Of a stretch of 64,000 nucleotides of DNA, positions 13,658 to 26,147 are shown one piece after another. The notes beneath the pieces were generated by a model, which was not told where the DNA came from, did no database searches, and worked only from the letters and a program-made list of their open reading frames with translations. The first letter of the stretch is position 1, and the number at the start of each line of letters is the position of its first letter. The translations under genes and the position numbers were made by a program. This stretch comes from Phycisphaerae bacterium (GTDB lineage: Bacteria; Planctomycetota; Phycisphaerae; UBA1845), in NCBI GenBank assembly GCA_029260075.1, contig JAJDDY010000039.1, positions 6,052 to 70,051 of the forward strand, read 5' to 3'.

Positions 13658-14898
13658 GCCGCACGCTCCCCGACCGCGTGGTCGCCATCTTCGCTTGCAA
13701 CGAAGCGCTGCCGGGTCTTCTCAATGAAGTGCTGAGTAGCCTTGAGCATCTGGTTGGCCTCGTCTTGACCGGGTTCATGACGGGCGTACTTGACCATGTC
13801 ACATGCGGTAAGGAACCCATCAAGCTCGTCAGCCACACCCGATGCGAAGCGATGGTCCCGACCGGCGGCCTCGAGAAACTCCTCCGTGGTCATTTCCGGC
13901 GCGGAGACGGCGAAACGCCGCTCGATGTATCCGCGTACAATGTCGCTTATTCTATAGTAGTAGGCTTGGACCTTTCGCTGAGCGATCAAGTCGTCAGCGA
14001 TCAGTATCGCCAGATGTCGCCTAGCCCATACGTCCGCGGGTTCAACCTCGACATATTCACCCTTTCGGCGACGGGCACGGCGGAGCAGTAGTACACCAAT
14101 CACCGCAAGCACAATCGCGACGGGGGGCGCGATCCACCACCAGCGCGACCAGACCGCAGGCAGCTCGACCGGATCGAGGCGGGTGATGTGGCGAAGCTCT
14201 TCTTCCGATAGCGGCGCGGCGTGCGTATCGTCCACCACGACCGCAATCGGTGTCGTGCTGACTGTTTGCGACTCGGGGGGCACAGCGTCGTCGCCAACGC
14301 CCTCGCGAATGTCGACGAATGACACCTCGAAGGGTGGGAGTTCATAGTCTCCCGGTAGCGAGAAGTCGAGGTCGTAGACGTAGCGCCATCGAAGTCTTCC
14401 GTCCCCGGTCGGCACAGCCACTTCACGCTTGGATTCGGCAACGCTGTATTCGAACTGGCGATCACCCTCGCGCAGGGCGCGATCGTAGGCTGGTTCGTCT
14501 ACCGTGACGCCGTCCTCGGCGATGATTTCGAGTTCGATATGCAGAGGGACGTCCATAGTCGGCGCTTCGCGACCGGCTTCCAGCTTGATCGAGACCGGGC
14601 CTTCCTCCGCCGTGCGCAGAACGGCGTCGCCTGATGTCGGCGTCTCCTTTGTCTGGGACACGCTGCTGCACCCGGAACTTGAAACGACGAGGCTGAGCAG
14701 CGCCGCGAACATGGCCACGAAACCGGAGCGCATCACACAGCGATATCTGCCGATGCCGCGATTACGAGCGGTGAATGCCATGGTCAAGCGCAGCGCGGCC
14801 ATCTCCTGCGTGGGTCGATACATGCCCGCGCCTTCGGCTTGGGCATGGCACCCCACGACGGCGTCGTTTCCAAACTCGCCGTTAGCGTGCTTGCTCAT
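13654..14898 (-). CDS. Conserved Bat-operon membrane protein (BatD-like N-terminus)
   Basis: TM segment then YYYRISDIVRGYIERRF..APEMTTEEFL, CDMVKYA; usual slot between DUF58 and BatA; start could be further downstream (~14733). Confidence 0.8.
   Translation of the reverse strand: MSKHANGEFGNDAVVGCHAQAEGAGMYRPTQEMAALRLTMAFTARNRGIGRYRCVMRSGFVAMFAALLSLVVSSSGCSSVSQTKETPTSGDAVLRTAEEGPVSIKLEAGREAPTMDVPLHIELEIIAEDGVTVDEPAYDRALREGDRQFEYSVAESKREVAVPTGDGRLRWRYVYDLDFSLPGDYELPPFEVSFVDIREGVGDDAVPPESQTVSTTPIAVVVDDTHAAPLSEEELRHITRLDPVELPAVWSRWWWIAPPVAIVLAVIGVLLLRRARRRKGEYVEVEPADVWARRHLAILIADDLIAQRKVQAYYYRISDIVRGYIERRFAVSAPEMTTEEFLEAAGRDHRFASGVADELDGFLTACDMVKYARHEPGQDEANQMLKATQHFIEKTRQRFVASEDGDHAVGERAA
14776..14854. 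repeat. Inverted pair of TGCCATG-type palindromic repeats
   Basis: TGCCATGGTCAAGCGCAGCGCGGCCAT and CATGCCCGCGCCTTCGGCTTGGGCATGGCACCCC. Confidence 0.6.
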
Positions 14899-14914
14899 CG
14901 GTCTTCGCGTCGAC

Positions 14915-15790
14915 TCATCGTCGCCGCTCCCTCTTGTGAAAGAACTTCACGAGTGGATCCACGTACGACTGATCGGTATGCACCTCGATGGTCTCGGTGT
15001 CCATTCGGCGGAACATGGTCTCTCGTGCGCTCGCCGCGTTTGCGGTCAGCGATTCGTATCGGCGACGCAGCGACCGGCTTGACGTGTCGACCAGCGTGAG
15101 TTCGCCGGTCTCGGCGTCCTGCAATTCTACGAACCCGACGTTGGGCAGGGTCTTCTCGCGCGGGTCCGTGATAATGATAGGTATCAAATCGTGACGGCGG
15201 CGGGCGATGCGTAGCGCGGGTTCAAAGCCATCGTCGAGAAAATCGCTCACCAGAAAACAGACGGACTTGCGCGTCGTGATGCGGTTGAGAAAGGCGATGG
15301 CTTCGGCAATGTCCGTACCCTTCCCCACCGGCTCGTGGAACAGTAGCTCGCGAATGATACGCAACACGTGCTGTGTACCCTTCTTAGCTGGGACGTACTT
15401 CTCCACTTGGTCAGAAAACAGGATCAACCCGACGTTGTCGTTGCTGCGGATGGCGGAGAATGCGAGCACGGCGCACAGTTCGGCCGCCACGTCGAGCTTG
15501 AACTGGCGCGAACTTCCGAACAATCCGGATCGACTCGCGTCGACAACAAGCATGACCGTCAGCTCGCGTTCCTCTCGGAACTTCTTGATGAACGGCTCAC
15601 CGTACCGGGCCGAGACGTTCCAATCGATCAGCCGCACGTCGTCGCCCACAACGTAAGGACAGACCTCCTCGAACTCCATCCCCCGACCGCGAAAGGCGGA
15701 ATGATACTGGCCCGCAAGCACATCGTTCACCACCCGCGCGGTGCGAATCTGAATCTGACGAACCTTCTTTAGGAGTTCTCTTGGGATCAT
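14915..15790 (-). CDS. DUF58 domain protein
   Basis: GQYHSAFRGRGMEFEEV, GDDVRLIDWNVSAR, FREEREL. Confidence 0.92.
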   Translation of the reverse strand: MIPRELLKKVRQIQIRTARVVNDVLAGQYHSAFRGRGMEFEEVCPYVVGDDVRLIDWNVSARYGEPFIKKFREERELTVMLVVDASRSGLFGSSRQFKLDVAAELCAVLAFSAIRSNDNVGLILFSDQVEKYVPAKKGTQHVLRIIRELLFHEPVGKGTDIAEAIAFLNRITTRKSVCFLVSDFLDDGFEPALRIARRRHDLIPIIITDPREKTLPNVGFVELQDAETGELTLVDTSSRSLRRRYESLTANAASARETMFRRMDTETIEVHTDQSYVDPLVKFFHKRERRR

Positions 15791-19466: not shown

Positions 19467-20636
19467 TCACGACGCGCCGACCTTCCCCTCGGCCACCTCG
19501 TCGTAGAGCGCTAACATTTGTTCAGCGTGACGGGCCATGCTCACGCGATCGGCGATCGCGCGGGCGGCGGTGCCGATTCGTACGCGGTTCGCGGTATCAT
19601 GGAGACTTATCACACGATCTGCGAGCCCTTGAACGTCGTCGCTATCATCCAAAACATAGCCATTATCGCCGTCGGAAATCATTTCGGACGCTCCGTCCCA
19701 TCGAGTCGTGACACACGCAAGCCCAGAGGCCATCGCCTCCAGCACGACGCGGCTACACGGGTCGTAGTAAGTTGGATGAACGAGCACGTCGCCGGCGTGA
19801 AGCATGGTCGGGATGCGATCGCTTGGTCCGGTAAACGTCACGAAATCAGCCACGCCAATCCGTTCGGCCTGGCGCTGCCACCGTAGAGAATCCCCCTTGC
19901 CGATCACCAACGATCGGACATCAGAAACGCCCTGCCGATTGATCCGCGCCAAAGCGTCGATCCACGTGGGCAGCCCCTTGAGCCGAAAATTGTGGGCGAT
20001 CAGCAAGACCAAGCAGTGATCGTCGGCGATGTCGTATTCTCGACGAACCGCCTCACGATGACGGCGGCGCTCCTCCGGGTCGGTGTCGTCGGGATTGACG
20101 CCGTTGTAAATCTTGCGGATTGCGGATTGCGGGACGTCGTAGTGACGACGTAACTGATCGGTCACGTAGTCGGATATGGCGACGATGATCGGTACGCCGC
20201 CTCCGAAAATCGCCCGCTCCATGATCAGCGAATATCGCTGCTTGAAGTTCAACCGGTTGGCGTATCGCTTGATAAGTCGCCTCGGTCCACTTCCGATGAG
20301 GGCCAGGTTGCGTTCGATGGATTCCGCAACCGTACCGCCGCGCGGCTGATAGATGTCGGCGCAGGTGCAGGGCGAGATCGCGTGGATCACGTCGTAGCGG
20401 TCCTGACGAACCAATCGGGCTACGCGGTGGGCAAACGTGACGCTTCGCCGCGTGCGCGACATGGCTGCACCGCCGATGTTGTGAACGTGCAGAGTAGGCG
20501 TGGGCGACGGGCGACTCCGCGTGAACAGGTGGACCTCCGTGCCGCGATCCATCAGATGATGCAGGAATTGCAAGGTGGACGTCTCCGCACCGCCGCGCCA
20601 GGGATCGATCCATTCTGAAATCAGCGCGACCTTCAC
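19467..20636 (-). CDS. Glycosyltransferase family 4 (WaaG/RfaG-like)
   Basis: GGAET, IYNGV, HNFRLKGL, VHPTYYDPCSRVVLEAMASGL; GTGA overlap with upstream kinase. Confidence 0.9.
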   Translation of the reverse strand: MKVALISEWIDPWRGGAETSTLQFLHHLMDRGTEVHLFTRSRPSPTPTLHVHNIGGAAMSRTRRSVTFAHRVARLVRQDRYDVIHAISPCTCADIYQPRGGTVAESIERNLALIGSGPRRLIKRYANRLNFKQRYSLIMERAIFGGGVPIIVAISDYVTDQLRRHYDVPQSAIRKIYNGVNPDDTDPEERRRHREAVRREYDIADDHCLVLLIAHNFRLKGLPTWIDALARINRQGVSDVRSLVIGKGDSLRWQRQAERIGVADFVTFTGPSDRIPTMLHAGDVLVHPTYYDPCSRVVLEAMASGLACVTTRWDGASEMISDGDNGYVLDDSDDVQGLADRVISLHDTANRVRIGTAARAIADRVSMARHAEQMLALYDEVAEGKVGAS

Positions 20637-21490
20637 CGGCTCGCCCTCCGAGCCATGCGGGCAGTCCGGCGCGCTTCACGACGCGCGATTCGCTCGGTCT
20701 TACCGATGATCCGATACGCCAGTCGACGACCTACCGCCCCCAACTTCCGAGTCCCTAGATATCGCGTCAACCACCGCATTCGATCCGTACGCGAAACGAG
20801 ACCCACCGGCGTAGAGAAGTTAAGAGCGGCGATATCTTTGACGACCCAGCGCATCGCGCGGAAGCGCGGGCGAATCACGCGCTGTAAATCAATCAGATGC
20901 AGCGACGACGCACACGTGGCTGTCGGATCGTAAAAAATATGCGCGAGGTATAGATCGCGGTGTGCATAGCCCGTCCGATGGAACCGCCCGATCATATCAG
21001 CCAGCGGCTCGATAAGCGTGCGCATCGTCGACGCCACCGACTCGCCACCCTCGGCGACCAGTCGTTCCAATGAGTCACCGGGAACCGACTGCATCAACAC
21101 CGCACTCCGCCGCTCCGTCTGGCCGACGAACTCTTCGCCAAGGGCAACGGGCGCGGGGCAGGCAATTCCGTCCTTAGCCAAGCGGACCATCCATCCGAAT
21201 TCCATGCCGCCCACGGATCGCACCGCTTGACCACAACGGCGCACTTCGCGCCGCGCGGTGCGTGGCGGTGCATCAAACCGTTTGAGAAAGAACACGCACG
21301 TGCGGCCATCGTGATCGAGCTCGATGCGTATGCGCTCGCGCCATCTCTCCAAGCCGGGCTTGCTGAGATCGCCGTCGTTGGGGATGGCAAACAAGGCATC
21401 GAGCGAAGCGATCTTTTGATCGCGCAGCGTGCGCTCGAACCCTTCCGCAACCTGCAAATCGTTACATCGGATCGTGTCTGGCCCATGCAT
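20633..21490 (-). CDS. LPS kinase, WaaP/InaA/Kdo family
   Basis: FFLKR, GIACPAPVA, YAHRDLYLAHI, LHLIDLQR, VKDIAAL, TDRMRWL. Confidence 0.85.
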   Translation of the reverse strand: MHGPDTIRCNDLQVAEGFERTLRDQKIASLDALFAIPNDGDLSKPGLERWRERIRIELDHDGRTCVFFLKRFDAPPRTARREVRRCGQAVRSVGGMEFGWMVRLAKDGIACPAPVALGEEFVGQTERRSAVLMQSVPGDSLERLVAEGGESVASTMRTLIEPLADMIGRFHRTGYAHRDLYLAHIFYDPTATCASSLHLIDLQRVIRPRFRAMRWVVKDIAALNFSTPVGLVSRTDRMRWLTRYLGTRKLGAVGRRLAYRIIGKTERIARREARRTARMARRASR

Positions 21491-21685
21491 TCGCAATTTA
21501 CCTGATGACGCGCGACGCAGTAACGTCGGGAACCGATTCGTAGCATGAACTAGGCACACCTGCGTCGGCAGATGCGTTGCCGAAACCATACCCGGCCTGG
21601 CGTGCCTCGACAGCGCACCGGCTCTGCGCAAGAGTGATTGTACCGCATTTGTGCGATCGGACTACTGCTGGTGCTTTGTCGCGAC

Positions 21686-22430
21686 TCAGATGACGGGTTT
21701 GCCCGGACCGACCTTGTCCTTGGTCAGTTGGACCACGCCGCTGTTGTATTGACCGACCGCGGGATCGGTGTACGAGTCTTTCTTGGTGGGTGACTGTGAC
21801 GCGCCGTCCGTGGAGACTACGCTCTTCCCGACCGGACCGCCGCCGGGAGGGCTACCGCCTCCGCTTGTGCCCGCGCTTTCCTCGCTGGTTCCGGTGTCGT
21901 TGGCGCAGTTATCAATGCCGCCCTGTGTCGGCGTCGACGACGACGCGACGATTCGGCGATAGTCGATGACTCTGTGGCCGTCGTAGTAATAGCACTCGCC
22001 GTCGCCCAGCGTGTCGAGGACACCACTGTTCTCCACCGTCTTGCGAATGCGCCGACCGAGGGCGTCGTAGTGGTAGCGGCCGACGGCTTCCGAGCCGCCG
22101 GTTATAATCCGAGAGACGGCCGCAAGGCGTCCGAACAAGTCGTAGCCGTAGGATAGCTCGCCGTCGTTGGTCAGGTTGCCGTCGCCGTCGTAGACGTAGC
22201 TGTCTGTGTTCCCCCCGGACGTGACCGATGTGATGCGGTTGGCGCCGTCGGTGTTGTGGGCGGTCGCCCTCAGCAGCGTGTCGGCGGAGGAGTCGTAACC
22301 GGGTACGCCATCCGCAGTGTAACGCGTTAAGTTGCTCCAGTTGCCCAGGACGTCGAGCGATCAAGTACCACCCTGGCCACCGGAGTTCTGTGTGCCGTAA
22401 CGGTATTTGGTGCGTTTGGATTTGTCGAAG
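21686..22430 (-). pseudogene. Rhs/YD-repeat protein remnant
   Basis: Reads ...QGGT*SLDVLGNW...YVYDGDGNLTNDGELSYGYDLFGRL...YHYDALGRRIRK...YYYDGHRVI; in-frame TGA at 22361-22363; no start codon and no PxxxxDPxG core. Confidence 0.8.
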
Positions 22431-22575
22431 GCTCCGCAGGAAAATTGCGTGATGAGCTGAGCAATGCGTGAGCTAACCCAATGGCGCGACCTTGTAGCTG
22501 CGGCGCTACTTCTCAGAGTCCAGAAGCGCGTCCGCCCTACACGGTTGCAACCTATGGAGAAAGACTCCTCCCCGA

Positions 22576-22974
22576 CTACCGCAATTGAGCTAGGCAGGTC
22601 TCCGCAGCCAGCCTCGAAGCCTTACGAAATGCAATGGGCCACGAATCCACTTCATGGTAGTCTACATCTTCTATTGTTAAATGAAATGGTCCAATTGAAC
22701 GCAATGGACGAACCAAGAAGATATCCAATACTCCAAACATAACTGAGTTATGCCATCCCTCGGAGGTCATCCGTTCTTTCTTCAAATCATCGAGAGCAAG
22801 TGAAAGGCCAAAACGCTCGTCTGGCCTTAGGCAAATCTTCACGGAAGCATACAAGGACATTCCACCAGTGACACGCGTAAAGGTCTCTTCCGCACGTAGT
22901 ACTGATTCAAAACTGCAAAACCCACATTGTGTCAGCGAATTGGTCCATAGTTCCAGGTAATCCATCTTGAGCAT
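22576..22974 (-). CDS. Stand-alone EF-G domain IV-like protein (132 aa)
   Basis: FTRVTGGMSLYASVKICLRP and LTIEDVDYHEVDSWPIAFRKAS align by eye with EF-G KQSGGRGQYGHVVIDMYP and SYHDVDSSELAFKLAA; visibly AT-richer than flanks. Confidence 0.65.
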   Translation of the reverse strand: MLKMDYLELWTNSLTQCGFCSFESVLRAEETFTRVTGGMSLYASVKICLRPDERFGLSLALDDLKKERMTSEGWHNSVMFGVLDIFLVRPLRSIGPFHLTIEDVDYHEVDSWPIAFRKASRLAAETCLAQLR

Positions 22975-23025
22975 CCTAGGGTTTTGCGTCCTTCATCAGG
23001 GCCATCCAAGCGTCTTGAGAGCCCG

Positions 23026-23048
23026 GTAGGGCAGGTCAATGACCTGCC
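23026..23048 (+). repeat. GTAG-type REP flanking RAYT
   Basis: GTAG GGCAGGTC AAT GACCTGCC. Confidence 0.85.
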
Positions 23049-23065
23049 TATCCCGTGGTCGACGA

Positions 23066-23611
23066 TCAGTCGTCAATGTTGGGCAGGTCGATCGCACTCG
23101 ATCCGGGCCAATTCGGATCAAGCCAGCCCAGCCTGACGTGACGATGAAAACTCGACCACGGCCACGACTCGGGCCGATCGACGTATCCGTGCTTGACCGG
23201 ATTAAGGTGAATGTAATCACGATACCGATCGTATTCGATTTCGTCCCGAATCCGGTGTTCCCAATAGCGGGGCTGCCAGACGCCTCGGCGTTGTTGCGAC
23301 CGCTGCTGTTCGGTCACATCCCAATCGCGACCGCCTTGCGCTAGGTAGTCGTGCGTGAACCGTCCCTTGATCTGTCGCCATCGTTCAGGAAAGTCGTCAT
23401 CGTCCGCCGGAAGCGTCCAAATGCAGTGTAGATGATCCGGCAATAGAACGCAGGGCCCGATCTCGAACGGAAGACGCTTTCGGACGGAGACGAACGCCCG
23501 TCGGAGCAGCCCGCGACAAAGCCCACTGGAAAGAATCCGTTGACGACGATAGGTGACCACGGTGAAGAAATACGTCGCCCCACACGCCCGCCATCGCACA
23601 TATGTCGACAT
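23066..23611 (-). mobile_element. REP-associated tyrosine transposase (RAYT, Y1/HUH)
   Basis: GATYFFTVVT, VLLPDHLHCIWTLP (HUH), WQPRYWEHRIRD, YIHLNPVKHG, WPWSS; flanked by inverted GTAG REPs. Confidence 0.93.
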
Positions 23612-23652
23612 GACGCCACAGTATCACGCGAGCGAACGATTGCCAACGGTAA

Positions 23653-24039
23653 AGGCAGGTCATCGACCTGCCCTACCTGGCTTCAATCCCCCCCGGAAAG
23701 GGGCTGACGCCGGATGGAGACGCCAAAACATGCCGAACACCTATTGACAACGAACAGTCTCTTCATGGATACCTGGCTTGGGCGCGGTCGCTGGACAGTT
23801 CGCTGCCCGGTGGCCGAATTGTCAATGCCGAACCGACACTCTTCAGTCAATCGATCGAGATTGCGTTGGATTCAGGAGTCACCTGGTCTGTTGGCACGTT
23901 TGGACTTGATGGCTGGTTCATCGGCGATGACGTAGTCATGATCGGGGTATCCTCGGATGCCTTCGGCATATGGATGCTTAATGTTGACGTGTGCGACAAG
24001 GCGGTGGCAAGTTCCTATAGGGCAACGCCCTCACCGTAA
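23653..24039 (+). pseudogene. Possible 5'-truncated gene fragment
   Basis: Stop-to-stop open frame of 128 codons with no 5' ATG, protein-like IEIALDSGVTWSVGTFGLDGWFIGDDVVMI...WMLNVD, abutting the RAYT REP. Confidence 0.3.
23654..23676 (-). repeat. GTAG-type REP flanking RAYT
   Basis: Reverse complement GTAG GGCAGGTC GAT GACCTGCC. Confidence 0.85.
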
Positions 24040-24131
24040 GCGAGCGTCATAGCTGCTGAATCTTCCACGACATCGAGATGCATTGGCAACGGCCATGGAC
24101 GTCGACGCCATGGAACGCCGAATGACATTCC

Positions 24132-24152
24132 GTCGGGCTGAGCCCGACCTAC
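24132..24152 (-). repeat. GTAG-type REP, different stem
   Basis: Reverse complement GTAG GTCGGGC TCA GCCCGAC. Confidence 0.65.
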
Positions 24153-24182
24153 GTGTGGATCGAAGACAATCGCACAATAGCG

Positions 24183-24656
24183 TCAAGCCGGTACCCACGC
24201 GAGATCGAGAATGGTGTTGGTGGGTTTTTCTGTATTGAACACAGCCTTGACAGGCATGCCGATTTCCGGCTTACCCTCTTTCAGATAGCTCATCAACTTT
24301 GTGCATACACCTTCAAGCTCGACGCTAATGAGCGGGCAGGGGATGGTCGCGCGGAACGGCGCACCGGGATAGAGCACCGTGCTGTGCGTCAAGATCGTGC
24401 CGACCTGCGGGGCTTCAACCCATTCCATTTCGTGCCAACAGTCAGGGCATTCGCATCGCGGCGGTAGCCACAAGCGCTTCTCTTCGCACTCCGGGTTCGT
24501 GCATCGCGTCGCCATGAGTTTCTTGTCCAGCAGCGCGGTGAAAAACTGACCCCATCCGCCGTACGAATGGATATGGTGCCAGTTCTTGAGGTTCTTGATT
24601 ACCAGCGGGTCGCGGTTAAGGACTTCCGCCGTCGTGCCATCGAGTTCGATCGCCAT
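24183..24656 (-). CDS. DUF35 zinc-ribbon/OB-fold protein
   Basis: CTNPEC...PPRCECPDC, EIGMPVKAVF; downstream of a thiolase-fold gene. Confidence 0.88.
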   Translation of the reverse strand: MAIELDGTTAEVLNRDPLVIKNLKNWHHIHSYGGWGQFFTALLDKKLMATRCTNPECEEKRLWLPPRCECPDCWHEMEWVEAPQVGTILTHSTVLYPGAPFRATIPCPLISVELEGVCTKLMSYLKEGKPEIGMPVKAVFNTEKPTNTILDLAWVPA

Positions 24657-24776
24657 CGTATGCACCTTCCGATCGTAAGCGCCGACCCACCGACAGCCAT
24701 CACCGGGCTGTCCGTTACGGATCGGTTTGAGTTCGCATCACATCGCGGACTCTTCGTCCGCACCTCAGTACTTCGT

Positions 24777-26147
24777 CTACGGCTTTTCCATAATGGAGCA
24801 CGTCACGTGACTGCCGGTTCCCGCGTGGGAAATCGCACAGGCACGCTTGACGTTGGGTACCTGAAGACTTCGGAAATCTTCCGGCTTCGTCTTGCCATAC
24901 CTCGCCCATCGTTCCGGCTCGGCGTGGAAATGGTCCCACTTGTTTTGCATTTGCCAAAGCACCTCGACGAGTTGGAAAATCCCCGTCGCCCCGACCGCAT
25001 GCATCGTACCAATCAGCCCGCCCGACGGATTCGTCGGCAGGCGACCATCCATATATGCGTCACCCGAATCGATGAACTCGCGACCGCGACCGTATGGCCT
25101 CAAGCCGATGTCTTCATACGTCTGCACGTCACTGATCGTAAACGCATCGTGCGTTTCCAGCAGGTCGAAGTCTTCGATCGGATCGGCAACGCCGGCCATG
25201 TTGTACGCCAGATAAGCGGCCATTCTCGCCGCGAGAAACGAACTGAATCCCGGCCACTCGCTTCGCTCTTCAGTGAAGTAGTCTTTGTACGTATCTTCAG
25301 TCTCGTTCGGTAAGAGCAGGATGGGCATGTTCCGCCGATCGGCGGTGCGCAGGGTGTGCGTGCCCCCACAGATAGCCGTCAGCTTCATCGGATTGTCGGT
25401 CATCCGATACGCGGTTTCTTCGTCCGCCAAAATCAACACAGCCGCCCCGACACTCATGACGCAACACTCGAGGAACGACAGCGGGTCGGCGACCATATCG
25501 TTTTCGAGAACCTGCTCGACCGTGTAGTGACCGGGGTTCTGCGAGTACGGGGAGTAGCAGGCGTGTTCGTAATTCTTGCAGGCGATCTTCGCCAGCGTTT
25601 CTCGCGGCACTTTGTTTTCGTGCTGGTAACGCTGGGCCATCAGCGCGTAGTACGCCGCATACATCCATCCTAGTTCGCTCTCGAAGTCCTTACATGCGGC
25701 GCTGGCGATGTACGCATTGCCCACCTTGGTCGGCACCTCGTCCATGCGCTCCCAACCCACAACGGGCACGCACGTAGCGTATCCCGAAGCCACCGCCTGC
25801 GCGGCGGCAAGCACGGACGAACCGCCGGTAGCGCCGCCCGTTTTGACTTCGATATTCCCCAGCGGGTCGAACCCGATGTAGTCGTGAATTTTGGAGGCCG
25901 CAAGAAGCTGGTCGCCGAAATGGTCGGCGAACTGAGAATACACAACCCAGTTCACCATCCGGCGAAACTCCTCTGGAGAAACCTTCAGGTCGTTCTCTTC
26001 GACGGCCATGCGCAGCGCCTCGGTGCATAGCTGTGACGAGTTTTTCTCGGGGTATCGCTTGCGGTAATCGGTCAATCCGCCGGCGACGACGTAGACCGGC
26101 TTCTCAAAACGCGGGATGCGTAGGTTCCCGGGTCCGAACTTGATCAT
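24777..26147 (-). CDS. SCP-x/archaeal-type thiolase-fold protein
   Basis: ETHDAFT, PTNPSGGLIGTMHAVGATG, GAAVLILA; EVKTGGATGG where ExACAS is usual. Confidence 0.85.
   Translation of the reverse strand: MIKFGPGNLRIPRFEKPVYVVAGGLTDYRKRYPEKNSSQLCTEALRMAVEENDLKVSPEEFRRMVNWVVYSQFADHFGDQLLAASKIHDYIGFDPLGNIEVKTGGATGGSSVLAAAQAVASGYATCVPVVGWERMDEVPTKVGNAYIASAACKDFESELGWMYAAYYALMAQRYQHENKVPRETLAKIACKNYEHACYSPYSQNPGHYTVEQVLENDMVADPLSFLECCVMSVGAAVLILADEETAYRMTDNPMKLTAICGGTHTLRTADRRNMPILLLPNETEDTYKDYFTEERSEWPGFSSFLAARMAAYLAYNMAGVADPIEDFDLLETHDAFTISDVQTYEDIGLRPYGRGREFIDSGDAYMDGRLPTNPSGGLIGTMHAVGATGIFQLVEVLWQMQNKWDHFHAEPERWARYGKTKPEDFRSLQVPNVKRACAISHAGTGSHVTCSIMEKP

Follow-up and report, generated by a model that had tools for sequence, protein, structure and literature searches.

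The window considered here is a stretch of 64,000 nucleotides from the genome of a Phycisphaerae bacterium. At positions 22576..22974, on the minus strand, it carries an open reading frame (ORF) whose product, P0001, is a stand-alone protein resembling domain IV of elongation factor EF-G and a candidate orphan immunity protein, as judged from the ORF itself, its Pfam match, its predicted fold and its family. The ORF translates into 132 aa, and the family alignment, together with a public gene call (P0002, 129 aa), indicates that the probable true start is the second ATG, which encodes M4 at 22965. The gene lies within a low-GC patch (22400..22999) whose GC content of 0.46-0.50 compares with 0.58-0.65, about 0.59, on both sides, a composition that may be taken as a sign of foreign origin.

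Downstream of the ORF and on the same strand, a 224-codon frame that runs from 22360 to 21689, within 21686..22365, encodes a fragment of an Rhs/YD-repeat core, which is a displaced or decayed rhs remnant. The frame has no start codon and ends in a low-complexity tail. It matches RHS_repeat in three stretches (E 1.4e-7, 32.2 bits, cut-off 22) and YD_repeat_2x with 22.4 bits (cut-off 15.8), and neither the Rhs-associated core end (TIGR03696) nor a toxin tip was found in it. Its resemblance to the other Rhs sequences of the genome is limited to 32% identity over 75 aa. Genome-wide, TIGR03696 is found only on contigs C80 and C48. On C80 (about 13714-15265), a 2310-aa frame is followed by a 395-aa frame, with an Rhs-associated core motif, and on C48 (about 83408-83551) the motif is carried by a 614-aa frame. 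These (L046-L048) are probably active rhs loci that possess toxin tips and immunity genes of their own.

Directly upstream of the ORF, at 23066..23611 on the minus strand, lies a gene for a REP-associated tyrosine transposase (RAYT), recognised by NF047646 (E 1.1e-50) and by a weak match to Pfam Y1_Tnp. In relatives of the ORF, this place is occupied by a toxin-bearing rhs gene. A REP-like palindrome (23015..23056) separates the RAYT stop from the ORF start, and an inverted copy of it (23646..23686) lies on the far side of the RAYT gene. The two palindromes are 88% alike over 42 nt and 93% over 30 nt and share the core GGTAGGGCAGGTCrATGACCTGCC. Further copies occur on contigs C16, C54, C69 and C86 of the genome, and a 35-nt piece of the palindrome at 23646-23686 is also present on other contigs of the runs. 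Because the RAYT gene is bracketed by these palindromes, which have copies on other contigs, it can be regarded as part of a small REP/RAYT system. An earlier, sequence-only reading had placed the ORF between an Rhs fragment and a RAYT, and the profile matches given above uphold both neighbours. Part of this arrangement recurs in a third sample of the same study, where an independent contig runs over 21913-23043 with 0 differences and takes in the first palindrome along with the ORF and the Rhs fragment. On the downstream side, the gene order of the window from 19467 to 21631 (two ORFs, a GAF/response-regulator gene, a glycosyltransferase gene and a Kdo-family kinase gene) is common to 4/4 relatives (L060-L063) and then breaks at the Rhs fragment, the relatives being too distant for an insertion to be dated. 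The thiolase and OB-fold genes that lie beyond the RAYT gene are not found nearby in L060-L063.

The relationship of P0001 to EF-G is supported at the level of both sequence and fold. P0001 matches the Pfam family EFG_IV (PF03764) with an E-value of 1.7e-6 and 28.2 bits, above the cut-off of 24, and the match pairs residues 28-129 with profile positions 16-118 of 121. Searches of NCBIfam return weak partial matches to full-length EF-G models, all of them in the domain IV region. Using phmmer against PDB sequences, residues 28-125 align with residues 493-591 of Thermus thermophilus EF-G, the best E-value being only 0.025. In this alignment, the TGG..Y motif of P0001 pairs with TGGRGQY and its YHEVDS..AF motif with YHEVDSSEMAF, so that both motifs of the domain IV tip are accounted for; H107 of P0001 corresponds to H573 of the T. 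thermophilus protein, the residue named in the title of PDB entry 1fnm ('EF-G H573A'). The AlphaFold2 model of P0001, calculated from a 106-row alignment, has a pLDDT of 96.8 and a pTM of 0.88. Compared with the PDB using Foldseek, it gives 66 matches at E<=1e-3, the best 50 of which are all EF-G or EF-G homologues, and the best match has an E-value of 3.4e-9 and a TM-score of 0.72. VIA-align superposes the model on residues 471-597 of Staphylococcus aureus EF-G with Z 15.9 and an rmsd of 3.7 A over 122 aligned residues, and a second superposition has Z 14.6 and an rmsd of 2.1 A over 108 aligned residues. The sequence-only reading had described a 132-aa, AT-richer ORF that resembles EF-G domain IV, keeps both tip loops and lacks the other EF-G domains, and had proposed a fold comparison; the profile score, the structural matches, the aligned loops and the low GC content are all in agreement with this description.

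P0001 consists of domain IV only: the G domain and domains II, III and V of EF-G are absent from it. A protein without the GTPase or the other EF-G domains cannot be a translocase. Consistent with the claim that these domains are missing altogether, the two EF-Gs of the genome match the region 20000-26000 of the window only within the ORF, at about 22606-22890, with 30% identity and an E-value of 0.037. When 1.84 billion cluster representatives were searched exhaustively with the family profile, 370 were recovered at E<=1e-3, of which 148 reach E<=1e-10. Among the best 150 of the 370, lengths range from 55 to 236 aa, with most between 125 and 145 aa. EFG_IV is found in 88 of the 106 aligned family members, and the sole other Pfam family among these 106 is TREH_N, seen in a single member with an E-value of 0.0037. 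Database records name the members either 'hypothetical protein' or 'translation elongation factor EF-G'. They come from Acidobacteriota, Verrucomicrobiota, Planctomycetota and Pseudomonadota, with additional records labelled Myxococcales and 'delta proteobacterium'. In the ESM Atlas, clusters of EFG_IV-bearing proteins of 131-133 aa are commonest in Actinomycetota. No match to P0001 was found in the phage collection, and the five matching records of the plasmid collection were set aside as EF-G-like sequence: three are annotated as EF-G, one from Embleya is an unannotated 785-aa EF-G frame, and one further record is also from Embleya. A paper on a Stenotrophomonas phage mentions an ORF with EFG_IV only, ORF170 (PMC9025141).

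In a phylogenetic tree, 132 stand-alone rows are split from 10 true EF-G domain IVs by a branch with 99% SH-aLRT support. This tree (142 rows, 135 columns) was obtained by a quick search and many of its inner forks are unresolved; 6 of the 32 loci discussed below lie outside it, their matched piece covering fewer than 95 profile positions. Compared with EF-G, the family has an additional N-terminal helix with a near-invariant Trp (W10), and it keeps G37, A43, P51, a G-x-L-D motif, S111 and an AFR-A-R-A helix. The frame of P0001 is intact across family profile positions 2-128 of 133, and P0001 keeps 14 of the 16 positions at which at least 80% of family members agree. The two departures are a change of Gly to Glu at residue 30 and of Pro to Ser at residue 93; P0001 also has ASRLAA at the place of the AGRDA found in most members. 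Its nearest relatives, P0008 and P0019 (47% and 40% identity), lie on contigs of 757-1547 nt, too short to provide a gene context. Judged from these comparisons, the family is a group of ~130-aa proteins descended from EF-G domain IV that had received no earlier name. For annotation, this means that short EFG_IV-only genes form a family of their own and should not be read as fusA fragments, and that the label 'elongation factor EF-G' is wrong for them.

The genomic context of the family members was analysed at 32 loci with a stand-alone member, i.e., 25 genome loci and 7 of 11 metagenome loci, the other metagenome loci being three true EF-G genes and one match of 35 aa at a contig end. At 10 of these 32 loci, which were retrieved by three peptide patterns and so do not sample the family at random, the gene directly upstream ends in one common, intact domain of about 110 aa (L010, L019, L021, L025, L026, L028 and L036-L039). 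The gap between the upstream gene and the family member ranges from -4 to 41 nt, and the six genome copies of the common domain, hereafter the toxin domain, share 40-64% pairwise identity. Truncated or degenerate remnants of the toxin domain are found in L012, L017 and L035, and L020 retains a faint 22-aa trace. At the other 18 loci, no trace of the toxin was seen. A profile search did not find the toxin domain elsewhere in these loci. The proteins that carry it contain RHS repeats or a pre-toxin HINT domain (PT-HINT), or are named RHS repeat-associated proteins, and in a PDB profile search the region ahead of the toxin domain matches solved Rhs cores. An all-against-all comparison of the neighbours in the family loci found no other partner that recurs across phyla. 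Because the toxin domain lies directly upstream in relatives, the family can be proposed to serve as the immunity partner of one Rhs/PT-HINT toxin domain. The sequence-only reading had asked whether homologues of the ORF follow Rhs toxin tips, and this association is indeed found, with 10 intact and 3 decayed toxin domains among the 32 loci.

Members linked to the toxin are dispersed across the tree of the family. P0001 itself belongs to a clade of 23 rows (97%) that includes three toxin-linked loci and one with a remnant. As at the locus studied here, an Rhs-like frame is also found downstream of the family member in L012 and L020. The mode of delivery of the toxin tip varies between loci. 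In L021 (8595-9971), the tip follows a pre-toxin HINT domain, whereas in L019 (9264-9986) a 2945-aa frame comes first and the tip is encoded apart from it, in a 241-aa frame whose N-terminus is hydrophobic; assembly errors may have split the frames. Eight toxin-less members (L013-L016, L018, L023, L040 and L041), mostly from Acidobacteriota, form one clade with varied housekeeping surroundings, and the toxin domain is absent from the four genomes of this clade that were searched. These members may be long-kept orphans or may have a second, toxin-independent role.

The toxin domain itself resembles little that has been described. Its model is all-helical, with a pLDDT of 90.4, and 15 positions are invariant across 18 rows: H31, L32, R51, D61, F64, H67, E68, E71, M75, G78, H85, L89, Q92, I94 and Y105. 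No Pfam or NCBIfam family was found for it, and PADLOC and PHROGs returned only non-significant rows (E 0.045 and 0.047 for PADLOC, 0.12 for PHROGs). Foldseek gave no match to the PDB at E<=1e-3, the best E-value being 0.53. With VIA, none of 48,161 chains reached Z>=5; the best matches, an aminoglycoside phosphotransferase and a histidine kinase (both Z 4.6), are read as chance. As a guide to the identity of the domain, a PDB profile search with the toxin alignment was likewise discounted, as it returned only Rhs cores and whole Rhs proteins were in the alignment. The ESM Atlas provides a weak lead to a cluster in which Pyocin_S occurs in 37% of the members.

Direct binding between the two partners is predicted for the pair formed by the toxin tip of L025 and its downstream neighbour. 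The complex reaches an ipSAE of 0.86 (0.85, 0.86 and 0.86 in separate runs), while the best of three controls scores 0.00. This mark was attained by 58 of 80 solved complexes and 2 of 110 mismatched pairs, counts that apply only roughly here because own alignments were used for the pair. At least 98% of the contacts are common to the runs, and the pLDDT of the partner is at least 81. On the toxin side, the predicted interface includes the invariant residues H31, L32, F64, H67, E68, E71, H85 and Y105. On the immunity side, it comprises residues 37-42, 109-115 and 118, which map to residues 35-40, 108-114 and 117 of P0001, i.e., the two tip loops of domain IV. These contact loops align with residues 500-505 and 574-580/583 of T. 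thermophilus EF-G. The prediction supports binding as far as model confidence can, and it does so for the L025 pair rather than for P0001.

The genome that carries P0001 appears to have lost the corresponding toxin. No toxin domain was found upstream of the ORF, and the toxin profile detects nothing in the genome, which is 96.9% complete (best E 0.17). As a positive control, the same domain was recovered in 5/5 toxin-bearing genomes. The ORF is thus an orphan, because the cognate toxin gene is absent from the genome. Similarly, the toxin domain is absent from 9 of 10 other orphan-bearing genomes, the remaining one giving a marginal match (E 2.8e-4). Within the genome, the family profile detects only the P0001 ORF and the two true EF-Gs. 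Stand-alone members turned up in none of the 40 relatives searched and, at E<=1e-14 and with at most 10 candidates scored per genome, in none of 400 other genomes of the phylum. The family thus shows a patchy, horizontally spread distribution with orphan copies.

Altogether, these findings lead to a model, which we consider likely, in which the P0001 gene is the orphan immunity gene of an Rhs toxin-immunity pair that was acquired horizontally, and which was left behind when the rhs gene decayed. The family would be the immunity partner of one Rhs/PT-HINT C-terminal toxin domain, and the immunity protein would bind the toxin directly. The tip loops (residues 35-40 and 108-114/117 in P0001) would sit on the invariant His/Glu/Tyr surface of the toxin and block it. 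At the present locus, the cognate toxin gene would have been lost, leaving the REP-flanked RAYT gene upstream and the start-less Rhs fragment downstream. The orphan would at best protect the cell from biofilm neighbours that deliver such a toxin. The immunity role proposed for P0001 is thus carried over from relatives that are 17-47% identical to it. An orphan immunity protein had been among the proposals of the sequence-only reading, and it is this proposal that gains most from the existence of a stand-alone family, from the 10 intact and 3 decayed toxin domains at its 32 loci and from the predicted complex. Two of the observations named beforehand as fatal to it, a lack of structural similarity to EF-G domain IV and a lack of association with toxin loci, were not made, since the domain IV fold was found and the homologues are tied to toxin loci.

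A more specific version of this model concerns the origin of the immunity protein. Here, the substrate of the toxin would be the tip of EF-G domain IV, and the immunity protein would be a captured copy of the domain that serves as a pseudo-substrate or decoy. The sequence-only reading had likewise suggested a decoy for a toxin aimed at EF-G or the ribosome. The present proposal refines the orphan-immunity model and does not exclude it, and we regard it as tentative. In eEF2, the corresponding tip is the point of attack of diphtheria toxin and exotoxin A, and the tip of EF-G domain IV is the bacterial counterpart of the eEF2 site hit by diphtheria-type toxins. The interface predicted for the immunity protein corresponds to exactly the two loops that align with EF-G 500-505 and 574-580/583, it faces an invariant H/E/E/H/Y cluster on the toxin, and loop II keeps an EF-G-like (V/I)-D-S-S..AF across the family. 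However, the toxin fold matched nothing in either structural search (Foldseek best E 0.53, VIA best Z 4.6), and no significant match in Pfam, NCBIfam, PADLOC or PHROGs assigns the toxin to a known class. Moreover, loop I mostly reads H-L-G-P-R instead of the G-G-R-G-Q of EF-G, and the DSS..AF residues may be kept for folding alone. The complete scenario, in which this Rhs toxin family hits the EF-G domain IV tip, the captured domain plugs the active site and the orphans persist as stand-alone shields where bacteria live densely together, is a speculative possibility that we would rather bet against. If the predicted docking is true, it would provide a direct lead to the target of the toxin and a clear case of an immunity protein that evolved from the target itself.

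It could also be argued that the P0001 gene is a relic, neither expressed nor of use any more, and all that can still be read of an Rhs locus in decay. In favour of this view are the loss of the toxin, the missing start codon of the adjacent Rhs frame, the two altered conserved positions of P0001 and the split or partial state of 6 of the 32 family loci. Yet the P0001 frame is uninterrupted over almost the whole family profile, all but two of the 16 conserved positions are kept, and other genomes commonly carry intact orphan copies, which makes a gene without function improbable. Less probable still is a role on the ribosome, another suggestion of the sequence-only reading, in which the free-standing domain IV would act as a translation modulator or ribosome protector and the linkage to Rhs would be secondary. 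In its fold and tip motifs, P0001 does preserve the region by which EF-G reaches into the decoding site, more than half of the family loci (18/32) are devoid of any toxin trace, and an orphan clade persists in toxin-less genomes. EF-G, however, is kept on the ribosome by its G domain and by domains II, III and V, none of which P0001 has. Only the toxin tip recurs as a neighbour across phyla, and it invariably lies directly upstream; the distribution is sporadic, the GC content is low and the predicted partner is the toxin. A ribosome-directed function is conceivable, yet without support, for the toxin-less clade. Finally, the idea that P0001 is a fragment of a broken fusA paralogue, an objection raised in the earlier reading that has the domain match itself and nothing more in its favour, is rejected as having a negligible probability, as the region 20000-26000 holds no other EF-G domain, P0001 starts and stops at the domain borders, its identity to the genome's own EF-G is only about 30%, and it belongs to a stand-alone family of ~130-aa proteins that forms a separate clade in the tree.

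Comparison with known systems helps to place the orphan-immunity model. Rhs toxin-immunity pairs are known, and both partners of the present pair appear to be undescribed. Precedents among Rhs-type toxins include Tre23 (PMC8661411) and an Rhs toxin reported to ADP-ribosylate EF-Tu (PMC9825190). Like the immunity proteins of Rhs and other polymorphic toxins (RhsI type), the toxin-linked members of this family are encoded by a small gene on the same strand, directly after a variable C-terminal toxin tip, and are predicted, from the L025 pair, to bind that tip; toxin-less copies and displaced rhs fragments occur in both cases. Unlike them, the family has the fold of EF-G domain IV, a class not found among described immunity proteins, and the toxin domain with which it is paired belongs to no Pfam or NCBIfam family and matched no structure. 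A survey of such systems (PMC3482391) nowhere uses the terms EF-G, elongation factor, S5 domain or domain IV in its available portion. The literature covered, outside which lie supplements and subscription journals, contains neither a stand-alone EF-G domain IV immunity protein nor an Rhs toxin aimed at EF-G.

The conservation of an immunity gene without its toxin, which would plausibly shield the cell from its neighbours, is a feature shared with orphan immunity genes and with the acquired interbacterial defence clusters of Bacteroidales (PMC10470768). The present case differs from these recombinase-linked clusters in that the bacterium, which lives in a biofilm, has just one such gene, placed in an Rhs locus that has decayed. 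With respect to EF-G itself, P0001 scores above the profile cut-off of PF03764, has the same fold and retains recognisable forms of both tip-loop motifs, but the family differs from domain IV within EF-G in that it stands alone, possesses the N-terminal helix with W10 and forms a separate clade. Lastly, FusB-type fusidic acid resistance proteins and the ribosomal protection proteins Tet(M)/Tet(O) (PMC4342817) act through EF-G domain IV and illustrate that its tip offers a surface for recognition or use by other proteins. FusB binds EF-G and has another fold, and the Tet proteins are full five-domain GTPases, so neither of them is, as in the family described here, a free domain IV encoded beside a toxin.
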